A program made the translations under genes and the position numbers. A stretch of 64,000 nt of DNA, from NCBI GenBank assembly GCA_043799675.1, contig JAZDNN010000024.1, positions 7,418 to 71,417 of the forward strand. The letters run 5' to 3'. Source of the stretch: Candidatus Aenigmatarchaeota archaeon. GTDB taxonomy: Archaea; Aenigmatarchaeota; Aenigmatarchaeia; Aenigmatarchaeales; JACQIB01. Position 1 is the first letter of the stretch, and the number at the start of each line of letters is the position of its first letter. Shown in pieces: positions 3,159-56,695 of the stretch. A model generated the notes under the pieces. It was not told the origin of the DNA. It searched no databases and saw only the letters and a program-made list of their open reading frames with translations.

Positions 3159-3419
3159 TCAACGCCTGATTATCTTGGTCTCTCGCTTGGTCACGAGGGT
3201 GTCCAGTATCTGCCTCAGCTTCGCGTCGGTAATCGTTTCCTTCAACTGACCCGCCTGCATGAGCTGGAGCAGGTACAGTTCCAGCTGGCTTGCAAGCATC
3301 GGATTTGCCATCCTGACGCGGCCGAGCCTCTCGATGGCCGCATTGTCGAGTATCTTGCTGAGCATCATCTTCTTCGCGACCTCGAGGTGCATCTCATCCG
3401 CTTGGGATTCCATGTTCAT
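3159..3419 (-). CDS. PDCD5/TFAR19-like double-stranded DNA-binding protein
   Basis: 86 aa and helical, with ILDNAAIERLGRVRMANP...A.QLE..L..L resembling the archaeal PDCD5 homologue. It is conserved next to rps19e, and its start overlaps the rps19e stop by 4 nt. Confidence 0.75.
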   Translation of the reverse strand: MNMESQADEMHLEVAKKMMLSKILDNAAIERLGRVRMANPMLASQLELYLLQLMQAGQLKETITDAKLRQILDTLVTKRETKIIRR

Positions 3420-6130: not shown

Positions 6131-6218
6131 TGGAGCCTCGGGAGGGAATTGCACCCTCGACCTGCTGTTTGCTTGGTTGCTTACAAGACAGCCGCTCTTC
6201 TGCCTGAGCCACCGAGGC
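6131..6218 (-). tRNA. tRNA-Thr(UGU) with a 12-nt mini-intron
   Basis: 88 nt.
- Acceptor: GCCTCGG/CCGAGGC.
- D arm: GCTC-AGGCAGAA-GAGC.
- Anticodon stem: GCTGT/ACAGC. The loop is CUUGUAA after removing a 12-nt intron (6170..6181; central helix CUUG/CAAG, bulges UAA and CAA).
- T arm: GAGGG-UGCAAUU-CCCTC, with an atypical G at position 55.
- CCA is encoded. Confidence 0.8.
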
Positions 6219-50210: not shown

Positions 50211-51795
50211 ATGGAGCAGGAACCTGAAAAGCAGACAGGCAGTCTGCCGAAGGAAATCAAGAAAATCAGCGAGGTCGTCTGGGAACTGCCCACCAGCTAC
50301 AAGAAAGGCATGCGCGTGCCGGCAAGAATATATGCGACCAAGAAGCTGCTCGATGCGATGGACGCGGGAGTGTTCGAGCAGGTCACCAACGTCGCGACCC
50401 TGCCGGGAATCGTCAAGCATGCGTTCTGTATGCCGGATGGGCACTGGGGTATGGGTCAAGTCGCGGCTTGATTCACTCAAATATGGGTTCCCAATCGGCG
50501 GCGTGGCTGCATTCGACCCGAAGGTCGGCGTGATCAGCCCGGGCGGCATCGGGTTCGACATCAACTGCGGCATGAGGTTCGTCACTACCAACCTTACTGT
50601 CAAGGACGTCAAACCCAAGCTGAAAGAACTGGTGGATATCCTGTTCAGGACGGTTCCCGCGGGCGTGGGCGGGGAAGGGTTTGTAAAATTAAGCCGCAGC
50701 CAATTCGACGAAATAATGGTCCAAGGGGCCAATTGGGTCATCGAGCACGGCTACGGTTGGAAAGAGGACACGGAAAGAATAGAGGAGTACGGCTGCATCA
50801 AAGGTGCTGATCCGTCAAAGGTCAGCGACAAGGCAAGGACCAGAGGCATCACGCAGATGGGGACGCTCGGCTCAGGGAACCATTACCTGGAAATCCAGAC
50901 TGCCGAGAAAATTTTCCTTCCCGAAGTCGCAGAGGCATTCGGCGTGAACGAACAGGGGCAGATAGGGGTGATGGTGCACTGCGGCTCGAGGGGGTTCGGC
51001 CACCAAATCGGAACGGATTATCTCAGGATATTCGACATGGCAATGAAGAAGTACAACATCACGGTGCCTGACAGGGAGCTTGCCTGTGCGCCTTTTGCGA
51101 GCCAGGAAGGACAGGATTATTATCACGCGATGGCCTGCGCGGCAAACATGGCTTTTGCCAACAGGCAGGTGATTTTGCACAGGATACGCGAGGCTTTTGC
51201 AAAGGTGTTCAGGAAATCCCCCGAAGACATGGAAATGCACCTGGTGTACGATGTCGCGCACAACGTGGCCAAGGTGGAGAAACACCTGGTCGACGGTCAT
51301 GAAAAGGAACTGGTGATGCACCGGAAGGGGAGCACGCGCTGCTTCGGTCCGGGTAGGCCGGAGATTCCTGAAGCTTACCGCAAGGTCGGCCAGCCGGTGA
51401 TTGTGGGCGGCAGCATGGAAACGGGCAGCTTTTTGTGCGTGGGCACGGACAAGGCTCTGACAGAAACATGGGGAAGCACCATGCACGGCGCGGGCAGAAC
51501 CATGAGCAGGACTTCAGCGAGGAACCAGGGCTCGGGCTTGGCGTTGCAGAAGAAGATGGCCAAGGAAGGGATACTGGTGGAAGCCACGAGCATGAGCGGG
51601 CTTGCAGAGGAAGCGGGCTTTGCCTACAAGGACCTGAACGAAGTGGTCGAGACCATGGAAATCGCGGGCGTGAGCAGGAAGGTCGTTCTGCTGAGGCCTT
51701 TGGGTAATATTAAAGGCACCGCCCGGGCCTCATACAGCCTTTTAGCTTTCCCCATACTTGTCATGGTCTTGGCCTTGATTTCGTCCCTTATCTGA
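50211..51795 (+). CDS. rtcB: RNA-splicing ligase RtcB, coding sequence interrupted by a 31-nt BHB intron (exon 1 50211..50450, exon 2 50482..51795)
   Basis: - Exon 1 (80 aa) ends ...LPGIVKHAFCMPDGHWG.
- Exon 2, in another frame, starts YGFPIGGVAAFD...GGIGFDINCGMR, and HCGSRGFGHQ and further motifs follow.
- Joining at 50450/50482 recreates the universal MPD.H.GYGF.IGG motif.
- Unspliced, the first frame stops at 50469-50471 after 86 aa.
- The C-terminus carries a hydrophobic extension of about 25 aa after the usual ...IKG end. Confidence 0.85.
50451..50481 (+). other. predicted bulge-helix-bulge (BHB) intron within the rtcB mRNA
   Basis: - Central helix: UGGG (50445-48) / CUCA (50476-79).
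- Bulges: GUA (50449-51) and AAU (50480-82), each 3 nt.
- Inner helix: 9 bp, UGGGUCAAG/CUUGAUUCA, with loop UCGCGG.
- Cleavage after the 2nd bulge nucleotide on each side removes exactly the 31 nt needed to restore the frame. Confidence 0.75.
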
Positions 51796-52859
51796 ACGAT
51801 AAGCGGTTCGACCTGTTTCCACCTCGTGATGTTCTTGCCGATTATTTCGAGAATCAATTCCTTTTTGGCCGTTTTCTCGGGATGCCTCAACGGCAGCAAT
51901 TCGAGCATCCGACGGACATCGGCCTTCCTGAAGATTTCTAAGGCGAAATAATCCTTGCTGTATCTTATACTGACCCCATGAGTGTCTCTGCCGTCCCCGC
52001 GCCTGAAAATCCTGTATAGAATTGGATTAAAGCCCTGTTCCCTTAGTTGCCGTTTTATCCTACCAAGCAAGGTTTTATTTTCGGTGCCTATCCGCATACA
52101 ACACTGCAAATTTTCCCTGATTTTCTTGACCAGAAGCGACCCTTCCGCATCGAAGTAGCCGGCCAGGAACGACAGGAAAACATTCCGTTCGGATTCGACC
52201 AACTCTGAAATCAATCGTTTCCTGTTTTCCAGCAAGAGGAAGTCGAAGCTGTTGTCGAGGTCTGCGGATGTCGTCCACATGTAATTTCCAAAAGTTCTGT
52301 TCTTCGCAGGATATGTCCTTACCTTCGCATATCCTTTGAACAGGCTCTCGAAGACATCCAGGAATCCTTCATGAGTCGTGTTGGTTATGGCCCGAATGGT
52401 ATGCTTCGATCTTCTGAAGGCTGTCACATCACCCTCCACGAAACCAACCATGTAAGCCTTTTCTTCATCCTTTCCATCAAAACTTTGCCGTTCATGTTTC
52501 CTGTTTGTCAGCAGGATAGCCTCATCGTTTCCACGCACCCGAAAGCCGTTTTCTTCCAGCACCTTATGCAACGTGCCTTTGGAAGAACCAAATTTCTTGG
52601 CCAGCTTTTTCAACGATATTTTCTCCGTGTCATAAAGTCTCAGAATTTCCGTCACAGGCAGGTGTTTCCTGTGAGACAACGAATGTGCCTGACTGAGATT
52701 CCTTATCGGTATGTCAAGTTTGATGAACCGTTTTCTTACGGCCGACCACGATATATCGTCTCCGAGCTTAACACTCAATATCGCCGCCACTTCTTTGAAC
52801 GTCTTACCGGACGAATAGAGACTCTCGGCTTCCTTCAGGAGTTCGCTGTTCAGCTTCAT
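51624..52859 (-). CDS. LAGLIDADG endonuclease-like protein with N-terminal HTH domains
   Basis: 411 aa. There are two N-terminal HTH-like segments (GKTFKEVAAIL and ISLKKLAKKFGSSKGTLHKVL), then LAGLIDADG motifs (YMVGFVEGDVT and FLSFLAGYFDAEGS). It lies directly downstream of the DGR RT. Its last 172 nt overlap the 3' end of rtcB on the opposite strand. Confidence 0.65.
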   Translation of the reverse strand: MKLNSELLKEAESLYSSGKTFKEVAAILSVKLGDDISWSAVRKRFIKLDIPIRNLSQAHSLSHRKHLPVTEILRLYDTEKISLKKLAKKFGSSKGTLHKVLEENGFRVRGNDEAILLTNRKHERQSFDGKDEEKAYMVGFVEGDVTAFRRSKHTIRAITNTTHEGFLDVFESLFKGYAKVRTYPAKNRTFGNYMWTTSADLDNSFDFLLLENRKRLISELVESERNVFLSFLAGYFDAEGSLLVKKIRENLQCCMRIGTENKTLLGRIKRQLREQGFNPILYRIFRRGDGRDTHGVSIRYSKDYFALEIFRKADVRRMLELLPLRHPEKTAKKELILEIIGKNITRWKQVEPLIVQIRDEIKAKTMTSMGKAKRLYEARAVPLILPKGLSRTTFLLTPAISMVSTTSFRSL

Positions 52860-52914
52860 GGTCGTCTATTATATCCCGTTAGGCACTATAAATTGATATA
52901 TATTCTCGAGCACA

Positions 52915-53991
52915 CTAATCATGCAGAATACATCCAAAAATATTATTATACCTTCCAGCGAGCGCATTTCTCAACCTGAACGTGTCGCCCTGCGCCGCAT
53001 AGGCCATCCAGCCCTCAAGGCTTTTCGCAGCCTGTTCTGCCGAAATCTCACCGGATTCGTACTGCAGTCTGAGTGCCGTCATCCTTTTTTCGAGCTTCAG
53101 CAGGTTCCTCCTTTTTGGAATCCTGTAGTGGTAGAACACCCTGAAGCCGAGCAACGATATCCCCTTATGCAAAGGGTAGACCTGCGATTTTTCCTCATGC
53201 AACTCTAGCTTTAACCGTTGTTTGAGGAACCCGTTTATCCCGCTCCTGAACTGCATCAGCGCGGCCTCAGACCTGTCCAGAATCACGAAGTCATCTACAT
53301 ACCGGAGATAGAACCTTGCCTTAAGCACGTGCTTCACGAAATGGTCCAGCTCATTCAGGTAGACGTTCGCGAAGAACTGGCTCGTCTGATTGCCTATCGG
53401 CATCCCCTTCGGCAGGGCAGGGTCGTTGTTCGACAGGATTTTCCGTACCAGCCAGAGCACGCTTTCGTCCCTTATTTTTCTCCGTATGATGCCAATCAGG
53501 ACATCGTGGTCGACGCTCGGGAAATAGTGCCTTATGTCGGCCTTCAGTGCATAGCCGACCACCATGTTGTTGTCCTTCGCGCCGTGCACCAAACGGCCGT
53601 TCCCGGAAACCTTTCGCTTGAAGCAATCAAACCTGTCCAATGCTGCCAGGCCGCCCTTTCCCTTCCTGTTGGCGTAGCTGTCGTGGATGAACGTTTTGTC
53701 GAAAATCGGTTCGAGCACGTTGCATAACGCATGATGGACAACACGGTCCCTGAAATGCGAGGCATGAATTACCCGTGTCTTGGGGTCGCGGATGATGAAC
53801 CGTTTCAACGGGCGCGGCGAATACGTACGATTTTCAAGCTCAGTTTTCAAATCTGCCAATTCGCCATCAAGATTAGCTTCGAATCTTTTGACATACCATT
53901 TCTTCGACTTGCCCTTCCTCGCCTTTCTGAATGCCAGCAAAAGGTTCTCTGGCGAGCAGACCTTTCCGTAAAGGTTGTCAAATGTTTTCAA
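52915..53991 (-). CDS. DGR-type reverse transcriptase
   Basis: 358 aa with an apparent TTG start. RT motifs 1-7 include RVIHASHFRDRVVHHAL, the DGR-diagnostic PIGNQTSQFFANVYLNELD (I/LGxxxSQ) and the catalytic YLRYVDDFVIL. It has no maturase or endonuclease domains, and it sits 30 nt downstream of the TR. Confidence 0.85.
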   Translation of the reverse strand: MKTFDNLYGKVCSPENLLLAFRKARKGKSKKWYVKRFEANLDGELADLKTELENRTYSPRPLKRFIIRDPKTRVIHASHFRDRVVHHALCNVLEPIFDKTFIHDSYANRKGKGGLAALDRFDCFKRKVSGNGRLVHGAKDNNMVVGYALKADIRHYFPSVDHDVLIGIIRRKIRDESVLWLVRKILSNNDPALPKGMPIGNQTSQFFANVYLNELDHFVKHVLKARFYLRYVDDFVILDRSEAALMQFRSGINGFLKQRLKLELHEEKSQVYPLHKGISLLGFRVFYHYRIPKRRNLLKLEKRMTALRLQYESGEISAEQAAKSLEGWMAYAAQGDTFRLRNALAGRYNNIFGCILHD

Positions 53992-54040
53992 AAATATCCC
54001 CTATCGGCGGCCCGTGCTATTGGCGCAGACCCCGTTGTCA

Positions 54041-54073
54041 TTCAGGCTTCCCGCCAAAAGGCAATGAGGAAGT
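54041..54073 (-). other. TR intron 3 (33 nt, predicted BHB)
   Basis: Sense-strand layout: CAGG | AAA | CUUCC-UCAUU-GCC-UUUU-GGC-G-GGAAG | CCUG | AAU. That is a perfect 4-bp central helix CAGG/CCUG, 3-nt bulges and a 5-bp inner helix. Confidence 0.75.
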
Positions 54074-54098
54074 TTCCTGTTCGAGGGCCTGTTCGCAT

Positions 54099-54129
54099 TT
54101 ATGCCGGCGGAACGTTTCCTTCCAACCGT
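54099..54129 (-). other. TR intron 2 (31 nt, predicted BHB)
   Basis: Sense-strand layout: AUGC | GAA | CGGU...GCCG | GCAU | AAA. That is a perfect 4-bp central helix AUGC/GCAU, 3-nt bulges, and an inner helix CGGU/GCCG enclosing a GGAA-ACG-UUCC hairpin. Confidence 0.7.
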
Positions 54130-54145
54130 TCGCATTGAAGCACCC

Positions 54146-54162
54146 TTGACGGCCCGAAGGCT
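54146..54162 (-). other. TR intron 1 (17 nt, predicted BHB)
   Basis: Sense-strand layout: GACG | AGA | GCC-UUCG-GGC | CGUC | AAG. That is a 4-bp central helix GACG/CGUC, 3-nt bulges, and an inner GCC/GGC helix with a UUCG loop. Confidence 0.7.
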
Positions 54163-54436
54163 CTCGTCCGTGTTCCAATCCGACCTGACGGAAGGGTTTC
54201 GGTAGCCTCTCCACCGACATGACACCGCGGCTTCAATCTTCGGGAACCTACCAACTGAAACCGCTGAATTTAATGGCACAAGCATTCGGACGGCATGAAA
54301 TGCCATCGCACCATCTTGCGCTCTATGGAAAGGCGTATAGCGCGGGCCTTTGCCGGGAGAATGAAATACCCGCCCCCCGATTGGGAAGGAAAGAACTCTG
54401 TCATGCAAAAATTGAGGGACGAAACGATTTATGCGC

Positions 54437-55183
54437 CTATTTTGAGGTCTTAACCGCTTTTTTTGCGGCGCAGACCCCGAGGTCATGCCTGAGCGAGGGC
54501 CCGCCCGCATCCGCATCGAAGCACCCCCCGTCGGAGTGCCAAGTCGACCTGACGGAAGCCACTTCAACCGGGATTAAGGCTTCTGTTTCGATTTCTACTA
54601 TATCCAGTTTGTTGTCTTTCATCCTGTAAGAAGCCGCTTTCTGTTTGGCCAGCTTTTGGATGACCTCAAGATTATGATTCCAGTAATCGTCCATCGTTGC
54701 CTTGTATTCCTTGTCGGAATTCATCAGTTCAGCCGACTCCTGTGCCTTGAAGTGTCTTACTCCAAAGTCCAGCTTGAACTCCTCGGGTATTCTCTGATAG
54801 ACCAGTTCCTGGATTATCCTGTCCGCATTGGCGATGAACCCTTTGCGTTTATAGTCCCTGAACTTTCCTGCGTCCCCTTTGGCCATCAGGAGCGCATAGC
54901 CTTTCTTTTCAAGGTCCTTTTCCAGCCTCTTTCCGTCAATTATGGCCAATATTTCATCGACCTCTCCCAACCTTTCTTTTACAGAAAAATCATCATCAAA
55001 TATTACAGAGCCATTGTAAGCGGCCAGCTTCGAATCATACGCGCCTGCTGCACGCAGATAATCGAGAACACAGCCTTCAACAGTTACAGGCACGGCTTTT
55101 CCCGTGAACCTGAATTCCCCGTCGATAATCCTCACTTCAGGCTCGGGCATCACGACCGTTGTTATTTTGCTCATGATAATCAT
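54437..55183 (-). CDS. DGR target protein B (VR near C-terminus)
   Basis: 248 aa. The C-terminal ...SVRSTWHSDGGCFDADAGGPSLRHDLGVCAAKK is encoded by VR-B. The N-terminal 200 aa are unrelated to targets C and D. No signal peptide is seen. Confidence 0.7.
   Translation of the reverse strand: MIIMSKITTVVMPEPEVRIIDGEFRFTGKAVPVTVEGCVLDYLRAAGAYDSKLAAYNGSVIFDDDFSVKERLGEVDEILAIIDGKRLEKDLEKKGYALLMAKGDAGKFRDYKRKGFIANADRIIQELVYQRIPEEFKLDFGVRHFKAQESAELMNSDKEYKATMDDYWNHNLEVIQKLAKQKAASYRMKDNKLDIVEIETEALIPVEVASVRSTWHSDGGCFDADAGGPSLRHDLGVCAAKKAVKTSK
54467..54558 (-). repeat. DGR variable repeat VR-B (92 nt)
   Basis: Colinear with the spliced TR. There are 16 differences, 14 at TR adenines and 2 at G positions. 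Confidence 0.75.
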
Positions 55184-55186
55184 TCT

Positions 55187-55912
55187 TCAGAAGTGCTTCT
55201 TCACGACTTCGAGGTCTTTCATCAAAGCGTCATATTTCTTTGACTTTTCCAGAAGCTCCCGGTATTCGCTCTCCGCGACCTCGCACATCTTCGGAAGCTC
55301 GGCCTTCTCGTCCGTTTTAAGGAGGGCGCAGACCCCGTCGTCAGCCCAGTGCGAGGGCCTGCCCGCAGTCGCATTGAAGCACCCCTCGCCCGTGGTCCAA
55401 GCCGACCTGACGGAAGCTTCACCGTTTTCAAACGAGATGCTTCCCCTCCAGACCTTCTTTTTCGGTTTCTTGAACAGCCCGGCATTCACGAGTGTATCAA
55501 AGACGTCCGATTTGCTTATCCCGGCCCTTGTTCTTTTGCCGTCATATTTGAGTTCACCGTTCACTTCCTTCACGACGGGGTCGGCTATTATCTCGCCCTT
55601 CTCAAGGGCGACTTCCCTGTTGTGCAACCAATAATCAATATTCATTTTCTTGAACGACTTGTCCTCGTGCACCAAATCGTAAGAAACCTGCAACGGCAGG
55701 AGCGTGTAGCGCTCGCCGACCTTCTTTGATACTTCCTGACCGAGAAGCGTCATCTGCCTGTGGTCGAGGTTCGCCACGAGGCCATTGCCTTTGTAGTCGT
55801 TGTGCCCTTCGGCAGGACTTCCCTTCCATTTCGGGAAATACACCGTTTCCTTGCCCGTGGGCGGCACTATCTTTCCCGCTATCTCATGGACGATTTCGGC
55901 CTGTGTTACCAT
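55187..55912 (-). CDS. DGR target protein C
   Basis: 241 aa and a paralog of target D (shared ...GKETVYFPKWKGSP.EG.ND...VGERY..LP.Q.SYDLVH.D.SFKKM). VR-C encodes SVRSAWTTGEGCFNATAGRPSHWADDGVCA, followed by a helical tail of about 40 aa. Confidence 0.7.
   Translation of the reverse strand: MVTQAEIVHEIAGKIVPPTGKETVYFPKWKGSPAEGHNDYKGNGLVANLDHRQMTLLGQEVSKKVGERYTLLPLQVSYDLVHEDKSFKKMNIDYWLHNREVALEKGEIIADPVVKEVNGELKYDGKRTRAGISKSDVFDTLVNAGLFKKPKKKVWRGSISFENGEASVRSAWTTGEGCFNATAGRPSHWADDGVCALLKTDEKAELPKMCEVAESEYRELLEKSKKYDALMKDLEVVKKHF
55326..55417 (-). repeat. DGR variable repeat VR-C (92 nt)
   Basis: Colinear with the spliced TR. There are 11 differences, all at TR adenines (11 of 22 A positions changed, 0 of 70 non-A positions). 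Confidence 0.8.
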
Positions 55913-55972
55913 GAGGACAATACCACCGCAAAGGATTTAAGCGGAAGACTGAACGTAAACGGCTTGAACTAC

Positions 55973-56695
55973 TCAATCGCCGCATTCGTCCAAAGCCGCT
56001 TTCCTAAAATCCAACGATTTAGGAGGGTCCTTCAGAAACTGTTGATATTCGCTCTCCGCAATCTTGCGCACCTTCGGCTTCTCAACGGCCTTGCCCGTTT
56101 TCACGAAGGCGACAACCCCGCGGTCAGGCCCGGAGGAGGGCCAAGACGCACCCACAGCGAAGCACCCAAAACGGTTTCCCGACTTGACGGAAGAAATGCC
56201 GTCATTCTCGTAAATGATGCCCCAATCACAGACGTTGTGATTGAGCTGCTTGAACAGTTTTGCGCTGGCAAGCGTCTTTATCACGGACTCTGCGTCAATG
56301 TTCGCCTTTACGCTCCTGCAACCATCATTGAGCCTGAGCTCGCCGTCGACTTCGCTGACAATCGGGACGGAAATAACATCCCCGTTTCTCCGTATGACTT
56401 CCCTGTTGATTATCTTATAATCGGCCATCATTTTCTTGAAACTTCTGTCATTATGCACCAAATCATAACTCGTCTGAAACGGAAGTTCGGCATAACGCTC
56501 GCCCACTTTCTCGGATATCATCTGACCCAAGAACACGGACTGCCACTTATCGAGAGTCGCAACAAAACCCTTACCGTAACGATCGTTGCGTCCTTCTATC
56601 GGACTTCCCTTCCACTTCGGAAAATACGCCGTTTCCTTGCCGGTAGGCATCCTAATCTTGTCCAAAATTTCATAGACGATTTCAGCTTCACCCAT
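55973..56695 (-). CDS. DGR target protein D (degenerate VR)
   Basis: 240 aa and a paralog of target C. The VR-like segment encodes SVKSGNRFGCFAVGASWPSSGPDRGVVA. Confidence 0.65.
   Translation of the reverse strand: MGEAEIVYEILDKIRMPTGKETAYFPKWKGSPIEGRNDRYGKGFVATLDKWQSVFLGQMISEKVGERYAELPFQTSYDLVHNDRSFKKMMADYKIINREVIRRNGDVISVPIVSEVDGELRLNDGCRSVKANIDAESVIKTLASAKLFKQLNHNVCDWGIIYENDGISSVKSGNRFGCFAVGASWPSSGPDRGVVAFVKTGKAVEKPKVRKIAESEYQQFLKDPPKSLDFRKAALDECGD
56108..56193 (-). repeat. DGR variable repeat VR-D (86 nt, diverged)
   Basis: Alignable to the spliced TR, but with a 6-nt deletion, several non-adenine differences and a diverged 3' boundary (GGGGTTGTCGCC against GGGGTCTGCGCC). It is probably no longer a homing target. 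Confidence 0.55.

Follow-up and report, generated by a model that had tools for sequence, protein, structure and literature searches.

The 64,000-nucleotide (nt) stretch of DNA analysed here, called the window below, belongs to a metagenome-assembled genome (MAG) of a Candidatus Aenigmatarchaeota archaeon. It carries a diversity-generating retroelement (DGR) whose template repeat is interrupted by three introns of the archaeal bulge-helix-bulge (BHB) type. All parts of the element are located on the minus strand. They are a reverse transcriptase (RT) gene, the template repeat (TR), whose end lies 30 nt ahead of the RT start, as claimed by an earlier reading of the sequence (the original prediction), a structured RNA in front of the TR, and three upstream genes that each contain a TR-like variable region (VR):

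52915..53991, minus strand: DGR reverse transcriptase, 358 aa, TTG start (Pfam RVT_1, E = 3e-16)
54022..54194, minus strand: TR, 173 nt, four exons and three introns (gapped TR/VR alignment)
54194..54163, 54145..54130, 54098..54074 and 54040..54022, minus strand: the four TR exons, 92 nt in total (gapped TR/VR alignment)
54197..54373, minus strand: RT-16 RNA, immediately upstream of the TR (Rfam RF03019, 57.2 bits; gathering score 50)
54437..55183, minus strand: target gene B, 248 aa, with VR-B at 54558..54467
55187..55912, minus strand: target gene C, 241 aa, with VR-C at 55416..55325
55973..56695, minus strand: target-family paralogue A, 240 aa, with a decayed VR-A at 56193..56108

The original prediction of an archaeal DGR is borne out by the type of the RT, adenine-specific differences between TR and VRs, targets with a modelled C-type lectin fold, the lack of Avd, and the archaeal source of the MAG. 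The open reading frame (ORF) at 52915-53991 contains both predicted RT motifs, PIGNQTSQFFANVY and YVDD, which align with the DGR RT motifs IGxxxSQxFANVY and YxDD. Its product shows 100% identity to a protein of a Candidatus Aenigmatarchaeota MAG. Comparison with the PDB identified the Bordetella DGR RT 8ub7 as its best solved relative (E = 4e-43); the next matches were RTs of a group II intron (4e-23) and of retron type (1e-21). In this comparison of E values, which is not a formal phylogeny, the match to 8ub7 is about 20 orders of magnitude ahead, in agreement with the expected grouping with DGR RTs and not with group II intron or retron RTs. Avd is common in DGRs, although it is not universal. 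No candidate ORF for it was found between the targets and the RT, as had been noted for the interval between target B and the TR, and the neighbouring genes in the window belong to other families.

The TR has a length of 173 nt, whereas VR-B and VR-C both have 92 nt, and thus the repeats are not colinear, unlike the usual DGR pair of equal length. A repeat finder reported three separate blocks of TR homology with different offsets. Plain MAFFT alignment misplaced these blocks and was replaced by a custom local aligner that tolerates mismatches at adenines and long TR-only gaps. Both this aligner and direct reading of the sequences revealed three blocks of 17, 31 and 33 nt that are present in the TR and missing from all three VRs. 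The original prediction had missed these blocks. Once they are removed, an open frame rich in AAY codons is restored, which encodes SVRSDWNTDEGCFNANANRPSNRNDNGVCA and has 22 of 22 adenines at codon positions 1 and 2. Compared with this spliced TR, VR-C differs at 11 of 22 adenines and at 0 of 70 other positions (Fisher p = 1e-8), and VR-B differs at 14 of 22 adenines and 2 of 70 other positions (Fisher p = 2e-9). The mismatch counts of the original prediction were thereby reproduced exactly, but they hold only after the three blocks have been taken out of the TR.

The proteins encoded by A, B and C have no match in Pfam or NCBIfam. The target protein was modelled as a C-type lectin fold, and the VRs lie within this fold in the C-terminal part, at the 3' end of the gene. 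The 3' boundary GGGGTCTGCGCC is the same in the TR, VR-B and VR-C over the 12 nt compared, and divergence starts only beyond it. Targets B and C track the present TR. VR-A begins with CTTCCGTCAAGTCG and ends with GGGGTTGTCGCC instead of GGGGTCTGCGCC, that is, it has its own variant of the initiation of mutagenic homing (IMH) sequence, and it is 6 nt shorter owing to a 6-nt deletion. A gapped comparison by eye, in which no tally was made, reveals differences from the TR at positions other than adenine. An ungapped comparison yields 38 of 70 such differences, a figure that is meaningless because the sequences are out of register after the deletion. Gene A, which is 49% identical to C at the protein level, is a diverged, decayed paralogue, and because of its own IMH variant and the indel the present TR is not currently its template. 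All three upstream genes thus lie on the same strand and carry TR-like segments, as had been claimed, whereas the boundaries given for these segments occur only in VR-B and VR-C, and the three tandem targets are reduced to two that follow the TR.

The three TR-only blocks have the structure of BHB introns. The BHB motif consists of a 4-bp helix between two 3-nt bulges, and in pre-tRNAs the intron forms base pairs with positions one and two of the anticodon (PMC4090602, PMC7714728). From the geometry of the canonical tRNA intron at position 37/38 we derived the rule that cleavage takes place after the second nucleotide of each bulge. In the following, H is the 4-bp helix between the bulges, h' is the stem on the intron side, h is the helix on the exon side, and ^ marks the cut:

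54146..54162, minus strand: TR intron 1, 17 nt, BHB type; H GACG/CGTC, bulges AG^A and AA^G, h' GCC-UUCG-GGC
54099..54129, minus strand: TR intron 2, 31 nt, BHB type; H AUGC/GCAU, bulges GA^A and AA^A, h' CGG.../...CCG with a GAAA loop
54041..54073, minus strand: TR intron 3, 33 nt, BHB type; H CAGG/CCUG, bulges AA^A and AA^U, h' CUUCC/GGAAG

In each of the three introns, H has four of four Watson-Crick pairs, and this full helix is found at a single junction compatible with the VRs. The adjoining stems h' have 4, 4 and 6 bp in introns 1, 2 and 3, respectively. Local minimum free energy folds reproduce helix, bulge and stem in all three cases. Folding of the whole TR and of the whole spacer was unremarkable (z-scores of -0.84 and -1.88); global energy is blind to the motif that local folds reveal. 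We applied the geometry rule to 12 TR insertions from six loci, that is, the window and further archaeal loci described below. For 10 of the 12 there is exactly one VR-compatible junction with four of four helix pairs and an adjoining intron stem. The stem next to the bulge comprises 3-9 bp in 11 of the 12 insertions and 2 bp in the remaining one (intron 2 of locus L007). At random positions of the same sequences, which give the chance expectation, a BHB fit was obtained in 0.4-3% of the trials per insertion.

The same geometry was found in two further introns of the contig:

6134-6218, minus strand: tRNA-Thr(UGU), 85 nt, with a canonical 12-nt BHB intron at about 6181..6170 (position 37/38)
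50211..51795, plus strand: rtcB, encoding an RNA ligase, convergent with the RT gene (Pfam RtcB)
50451-50481, plus strand: rtcB intron, 31 nt, BHB type; H UGGG/CUCA, h' of 9 bp, both bulges of 3 nt

The gene for tRNA-Thr(UGU), the only tRNA gene in the window, served as an in-genome control for the rule. The region beside the anticodon stem was parsed by hand as CUUG.UA^A.GCAAC.CAAG.CA^A, and the rule yields the 37/38 junction; ARAGORN did not report an intron in this tRNA. The rtcB gene is split across two frames, and removal of the 31 nt restores the frame at the junction predicted by the rule. The resulting protein matches the full length of the Pfam RtcB model (1-426 of 426), and it aligns without gaps and with 95% identity to the uninterrupted RtcB of locus L002 across the junction ...MPDGHWG^YGFPIGG.... 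BHB introns in mRNAs are rare. The intron in rtcB suggests a self-dependent loop, in which the ligase gene itself requires BHB splicing.

The blocks might also be hairpins that are kept in the TR RNA and skipped by the RT through template jumping or slippage, without any endonuclease or ligase. Differences in length between TR and VR, as seen here, were reported for about 7% of DGRs and ascribed to RT slippage (Wu et al. 2018, PMC5758913), and one of the archaeal loci studied here, L094, has a 6-nt TR/VR length difference of that type within a run of AAC codons (3160-3247). The published indels lie beside AAC repeats, whereas the blocks in the window are conserved, structured, BHB-shaped and missing from every VR, and the L094 indel is likewise unlike the structured insertions. 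The insertions are 17-53 nt long, and inspection of the junction sequences by eye revealed no microhomology between intron start and downstream exon start. At the precise junction of every block, a 4-bp helix and 3-nt bulges form the arrangement that is specific for EndA, the splicing endonuclease of archaea, and the introns of tRNA-Thr and rtcB, in which an RT plays no part, share this geometry. Owing to this geometry and the lack of visible microhomology we rejected AAC-repeat slippage as the cause of the length difference in the window, and we regard skipping by the RT in general as quite unlikely.

Next, we consider relatives with the same family of templates. Nine were obtained by exact-protein look-ups and a genome scan (L001, L002, L137, L138, L139, L140, L005, L006 and L019). 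The close relatives came from the look-ups; in a metagenome scan, the relatives among the matches listed had at most 59% identity. The RTs of the nine are between 86% and about 61% identical to that of the window. Introns occur at the same three sites in 10 of 10 TRs, including that of the window, and their loops and lengths vary. The length of intron 3, for example, ranges from 18 to 36 nt where the alignment resolves it; hand parses of L005 and L019 widen this range to 17-44 nt, while the junction is constant. The UUCG loop of intron 1 is replaced by GCAA or GUAA in relatives, and in L140 the stems themselves are replaced (ACAG/CUGU, UGACC/GGUCA and CUUU/AAAG).

The helices of the introns covary. 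For 21 helix pairs in the alignment of the ten TRs, 98.6% of the cells are paired, compared with 24-51% when the partners are slid by 1-3 columns. Ten of the 21 pairs have changes on both sides, that is, compensatory changes, and none of 500 shuffles reached the observed values. Compensatory changes were found in seven of the nine h' pairs tested. The helix between exon and intron covaries as well: GACG/CGUC is changed to AACG/CGUU in L005 and L006, and CAGG/CCUG to CGAG/CUCG in L005.

In the window, L001 and L002, the VRs have 0-2 mismatches at positions other than adenine compared with the spliced TR of their own lineage, and 3-6 in comparisons across lineages. The agreement within a lineage includes the lineage-specific 3' boundary with the IMH. 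Because all three loci have introns and their VRs follow their own TR, transfer from TR to VR seems to have outlasted the gain of the introns, and homing appears, from these patterns, to have continued after the introns arrived. VR-B of the window deserves a separate remark. One of its two non-adenine mismatches, together with an adjacent change at an adenine site, corresponds to the TR state of L001 (ACTCCG), and the other agrees with both L001 and L002 (TCGA), while its 3' end agrees with the window's own TR. This combination suggests that VR-B is a mosaic that arose by partial, 3'-biased conversion.

These comparisons bear on the view that the TR is dead and decaying, with the insertions as inactivating junk and the adenine pattern as a fossil. 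VR-A is clearly decayed, as would be expected in that case. However, the spliced TR and VR-C have no difference at the 70 non-adenine positions, the introns have kept their positions, together with compensatory changes, among loci that share only about 61-86% RT identity, and lineage-specific non-adenine changes including the IMH are common to each TR and its own VR. The RT ORFs are also intact. The absence of non-adenine changes from VR-C, the conservation of the introns and the joint evolution of TR and VR make a dead element highly improbable in our view.

Interrupted templates are not confined to this family. Insertions with no counterpart in the VR of the same locus were found in the TRs of L007 (two, of 53 and 38 nt), L014 and L098 (one at the same site, of 25 or 18 nt), L058 (three, of 30, 30 and 24 nt) and L141 (two, of 22 and 19 nt). 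They fit the BHB rule with four of four helix pairs, or three of four in two of the L058 introns; the fit for L141 was made by hand. L141, L007, L058 and the L014/L098 pair are thus four further families of archaeal DGR templates with the same kind of interruption. No Avd gene was found near the L141 DGR. In L059, L062, L057 and L064, insertions that follow these patterns but have different stems were recognised by homology only, since no VR is present on the contig; the helix in L057 has three of four pairs.

The RNA in front of the TR is RT-16, one of 19 motifs that were found near RT genes and whose role was left open (PMC5737381). The original prediction had seen in the 240-nt spacer only a doubtful ORF and hairpins; in fact, the segment 54373..54197 matches RF03019 above the threshold and over model positions 1-158 of 158. 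A 44-aa ORF between the targets and the RT is situated inside RT-16 and has no Pfam match. RT-16 passed the Rfam threshold in 19 of 19 related archaeal loci tested, including L021, and its end is separated from the TR by 0-6 nt in 16 of 16 loci in which both were mapped. With a sequence hidden Markov model (HMM) it was found in 96 sources (95 loci and the window) and in none of the loci titled bacterial, including DGR loci of the candidate phyla radiation (CPR). Four of the positive loci (L012, L016, L018 and L043) come from records titled Methanosarcinales, that is, from archaea.

For 85 archaeal loci, the distance between the end of RT-16 and the RT start gives an estimate of the space taken by the TR. 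In about 60 loci it is 97-127 nt, in keeping with a TR free of introns; 129-155 nt, seen in about 10 loci, fits one short intron, and 190-353 nt, seen in 15, fits several. Hence, in at least 15 of the 85 sampled loci the TR region is too long for an uninterrupted TR, and the window is part of the minority of loci with interruptions.

Two further observations concern RT-16. A 12-nt stretch within it (GGCCCGCGCUAU, 54348..54337, minus strand) is nearly complementary to a segment behind the TR (AUAGCACGGGCC, 54020..54009, minus strand), and if the two paired, a long-range helix would surround the TR. Covariation gave a mixed result, with two compensatory changes in L140 and four mismatch cells in the window, L001, L002 and L137, and the helix was left as unproven. 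In two relatives, gene calls of 144 aa (L002, 863-1297) and 117 aa (L140, 722-1075) overlie the region of RT-16 and TR. Small "accessory" ORFs called between target and RT may therefore be miscalled RNA.

Taken together, we consider it likely that this is an Avd-less DGR of a DPANN archaeon in which RT-16 is followed by a TR split by three BHB introns, the TR RNA is spliced by EndA and RtcB, and the RT copies the spliced product. The introns are present in the TR and absent from the rewritten genes, so that copying of the template RNA apparently has to await its maturation by the tRNA-splicing enzymes of the host. We infer transcription, cleavage, ligation, mutagenic reverse transcription and homing in the following order. 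The RNA comprising RT-16 and the TR would be transcribed, and EndA would cut at the six bulges that flank the 4-bp helices. RtcB, encoded next door, would then join the four exons to a 92-nt template. The DGR RT would copy this spliced template with misincorporation opposite adenines, and the cDNA would replace the 92-nt VRs of targets B and C, which lie in the C-type lectin part at the C-terminus.

Several points weigh against this reading. Splicing of the TR RNA is a prediction from the DNA sequence, and the covariation alignment comprises only 10 related sequences. EndA was not located within the 64-kb window; its presence is implied by the intron in tRNA-Thr. Two of the 12 insertions, both from L058, have only three of four helix pairs, with stems of 9 and 6 bp. 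The helix h has 0, 2 and 0 bp in introns 1, 2 and 3 of the window and 0-5 bp in the others, and these introns do not have the canonical hBHBh' form with at least two Watson-Crick pairs in h. Because h is weak or absent in most introns (0-2 bp), they would be relaxed, HBh'-like motifs that need an endonuclease of broad specificity; relaxed BHB variants do occur in lineages with such an EndA (PMC5829648). Scanning the entire window for BHB motifs de novo was not specific, with 139 matches on the plus strand compared with 108-117 (about 113) in shuffled sequences. It was therefore dropped, both as evidence and as a way to find mRNA introns, and the argument rests on the coincidence of the motif with independently defined junctions. 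Finally, we found no description of BHB introns in the TR of a DGR in the searchable literature, the coverage of which excludes Paul et al. 2017, reportedly a survey of DGRs in DPANN archaea.

The weak exon-side helix also speaks for a different removal at the RNA level, as these are not textbook substrates of EndA. The blocks could be excised by another nuclease or by self-cleavage, or EndA fragments could be bridged by template switching of the RT instead of ligation by RtcB; group II-like RTs can switch templates. However, the BHB geometry is the recognition element of EndA, and RtcB, the standard archaeal ligase for the ends that it produces, is encoded adjacent to the element. An Rfam scan of the region yielded no ribozyme match. 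Furthermore, DPANN EndAs with extra loops have been linked to relaxed motifs (PMC5829648). We thus regard these routes as very unlikely compared with splicing by EndA and RtcB.

What the introns do for the element is a separate matter. Possibly they are neutral passengers of a lineage rich in introns, or they may insulate or gate the template. A tentative and rather doubtful idea is that they are functional: the stretches of VR homology in the TR, none of which exceeds 32 nt, would shield the TR from being overwritten by its own cDNA and from recombining with the three VR copies nearby, and dependence on EndA and RtcB would tie diversification to the state of host splicing, on which the adjacent ligase gene would itself depend.

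The genes around the cassette encode RtcB, a LAGLIDADG protein, the ribosomal protein S26e, Rpb4, DUF655 and KsgA. The flanking genes rtcB and rps26e were named correctly in the original prediction; rtcB itself is interrupted, however, and an insertion with the LAGLIDADG gene intervenes between it and the RT gene:

51624-52859, minus strand: LAGLIDADG/HTH (helix-turn-helix) homing-endonuclease-like ORF, 411 aa, inside an insertion of about 1.2 kb

Relative to L002, this insertion lies between the convergent RT and rtcB genes (about 51717-52960). It removes the rtcB stop codon, and as a result the rtcB ORF is 25 codons longer. The convergent adjacency of RT and rtcB is seen in L002 (2397-3875), L003 and probably L138, which has an uncharacterised partial ORF at the same position. 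In L001 (3066-4307), a phage-type integrase gene is located directly upstream of the target gene, and the surroundings of the cassette thus differ among close relatives. As the original prediction suggested, the whole cassette may plausibly be an insertion.

DGRs with multiple targets are already known. Archaeal DGRs, those of DPANN archaea among them, have also been described before (PMC4372165), as have TR/VR indels (PMC5758913). With the DGR of Bordetella phage BPP-1 (mtd-avd-TR-brt), the element in the window shares a homologous RT, transfer from TR to VR with adenine-specific changes, a VR at the C-terminal end of a protein with a C-type lectin fold, a GC-rich 3' boundary and a structured RNA adjoining the TR, which is RT-10 in BPP-1 (PMC5737381). 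It differs in the lack of an avd gene, in a 3' boundary that is identical in TR and VRs over the length compared, and in the three introns of its TR, whereas the TR of the prototype is colinear with the VR. The DGRs from Nanoarchaeota single cells and of the virus ANMV-1 described earlier (PMC4372165) belong to the same RT clade as the element in the window; L021 is the AAA011-D5 locus, with 60% identity, and there, too, RT-16 stands directly before the TR. Multiple targets in small DPANN genomes are common to the element and to the Nanoarchaeota and ANMV-1 DGRs (PMC4372165). However, the TR/VR pairs described in that study are colinear, and insertions, interruptions or TR introns are not mentioned: the word "intron" is used four times, always for group II introns, and neither "insertion" nor "interrupt" occurs.

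With known archaeal BHB introns, the TR introns share the 4-bp helix, the two 3-nt bulges and the intron-side stem-loop, and their lengths of 17-53 nt lie within the known range of 11-129 nt (PMC4090602, PMC2738675, PMC7714728). Cleavage after the second bulge nucleotide, a position derived here, would also be shared. They differ in that most have no convincing helix h between the exons. Furthermore, known BHB introns reside in tRNAs, rRNAs and a few mRNAs such as cbf5, whereas the TR introns interrupt the template RNA of a retroelement, and splicing would alter what is written into DNA, beyond the maturation of an RNA. In the literature searched, no paper combines "bulge-helix-bulge" with "diversity-generating", and "diversity-generating retroelement" together with "RtcB" retrieved only an unrelated survey of jumbo phages. 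An artificial precedent is known from bacteria: Guo et al. (2008) reportedly engineered a self-splicing intron into the Bordetella TR and observed its loss upon transfer to the VR, the classic proof of an RNA intermediate. The intron used there was reportedly of group I and had been placed artificially in a phage of bacteria, whereas the window contains three natural archaeal introns that are presumably protein-dependent. A later article (PMC3240598) cites this work only for the RNA intermediate.

If our reading is true, the template RNA of a retroelement would be a new class of substrates for the EndA/RtcB pathway, beyond tRNAs, rRNAs and a few mRNAs. The loss of the TR introns upon transfer would represent a natural experiment, since their absence from the VRs points to a processed RNA intermediate, through which archaeal DGRs would act. 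DGR finders that expect colinear TR/VR pairs likely miss or mis-delimit such elements. The RT-16 motif gains a context, since in archaeal DGRs without Avd it would form the 5' domain of the TR RNA. The introns of the TR and of rtcB together suggest that BHB introns in DPANN archaea extend well past tRNA genes. Should the tentative functional role of the introns also be true, this would be the first retroelement with a template licensed by the archaeal tRNA-splicing pathway.

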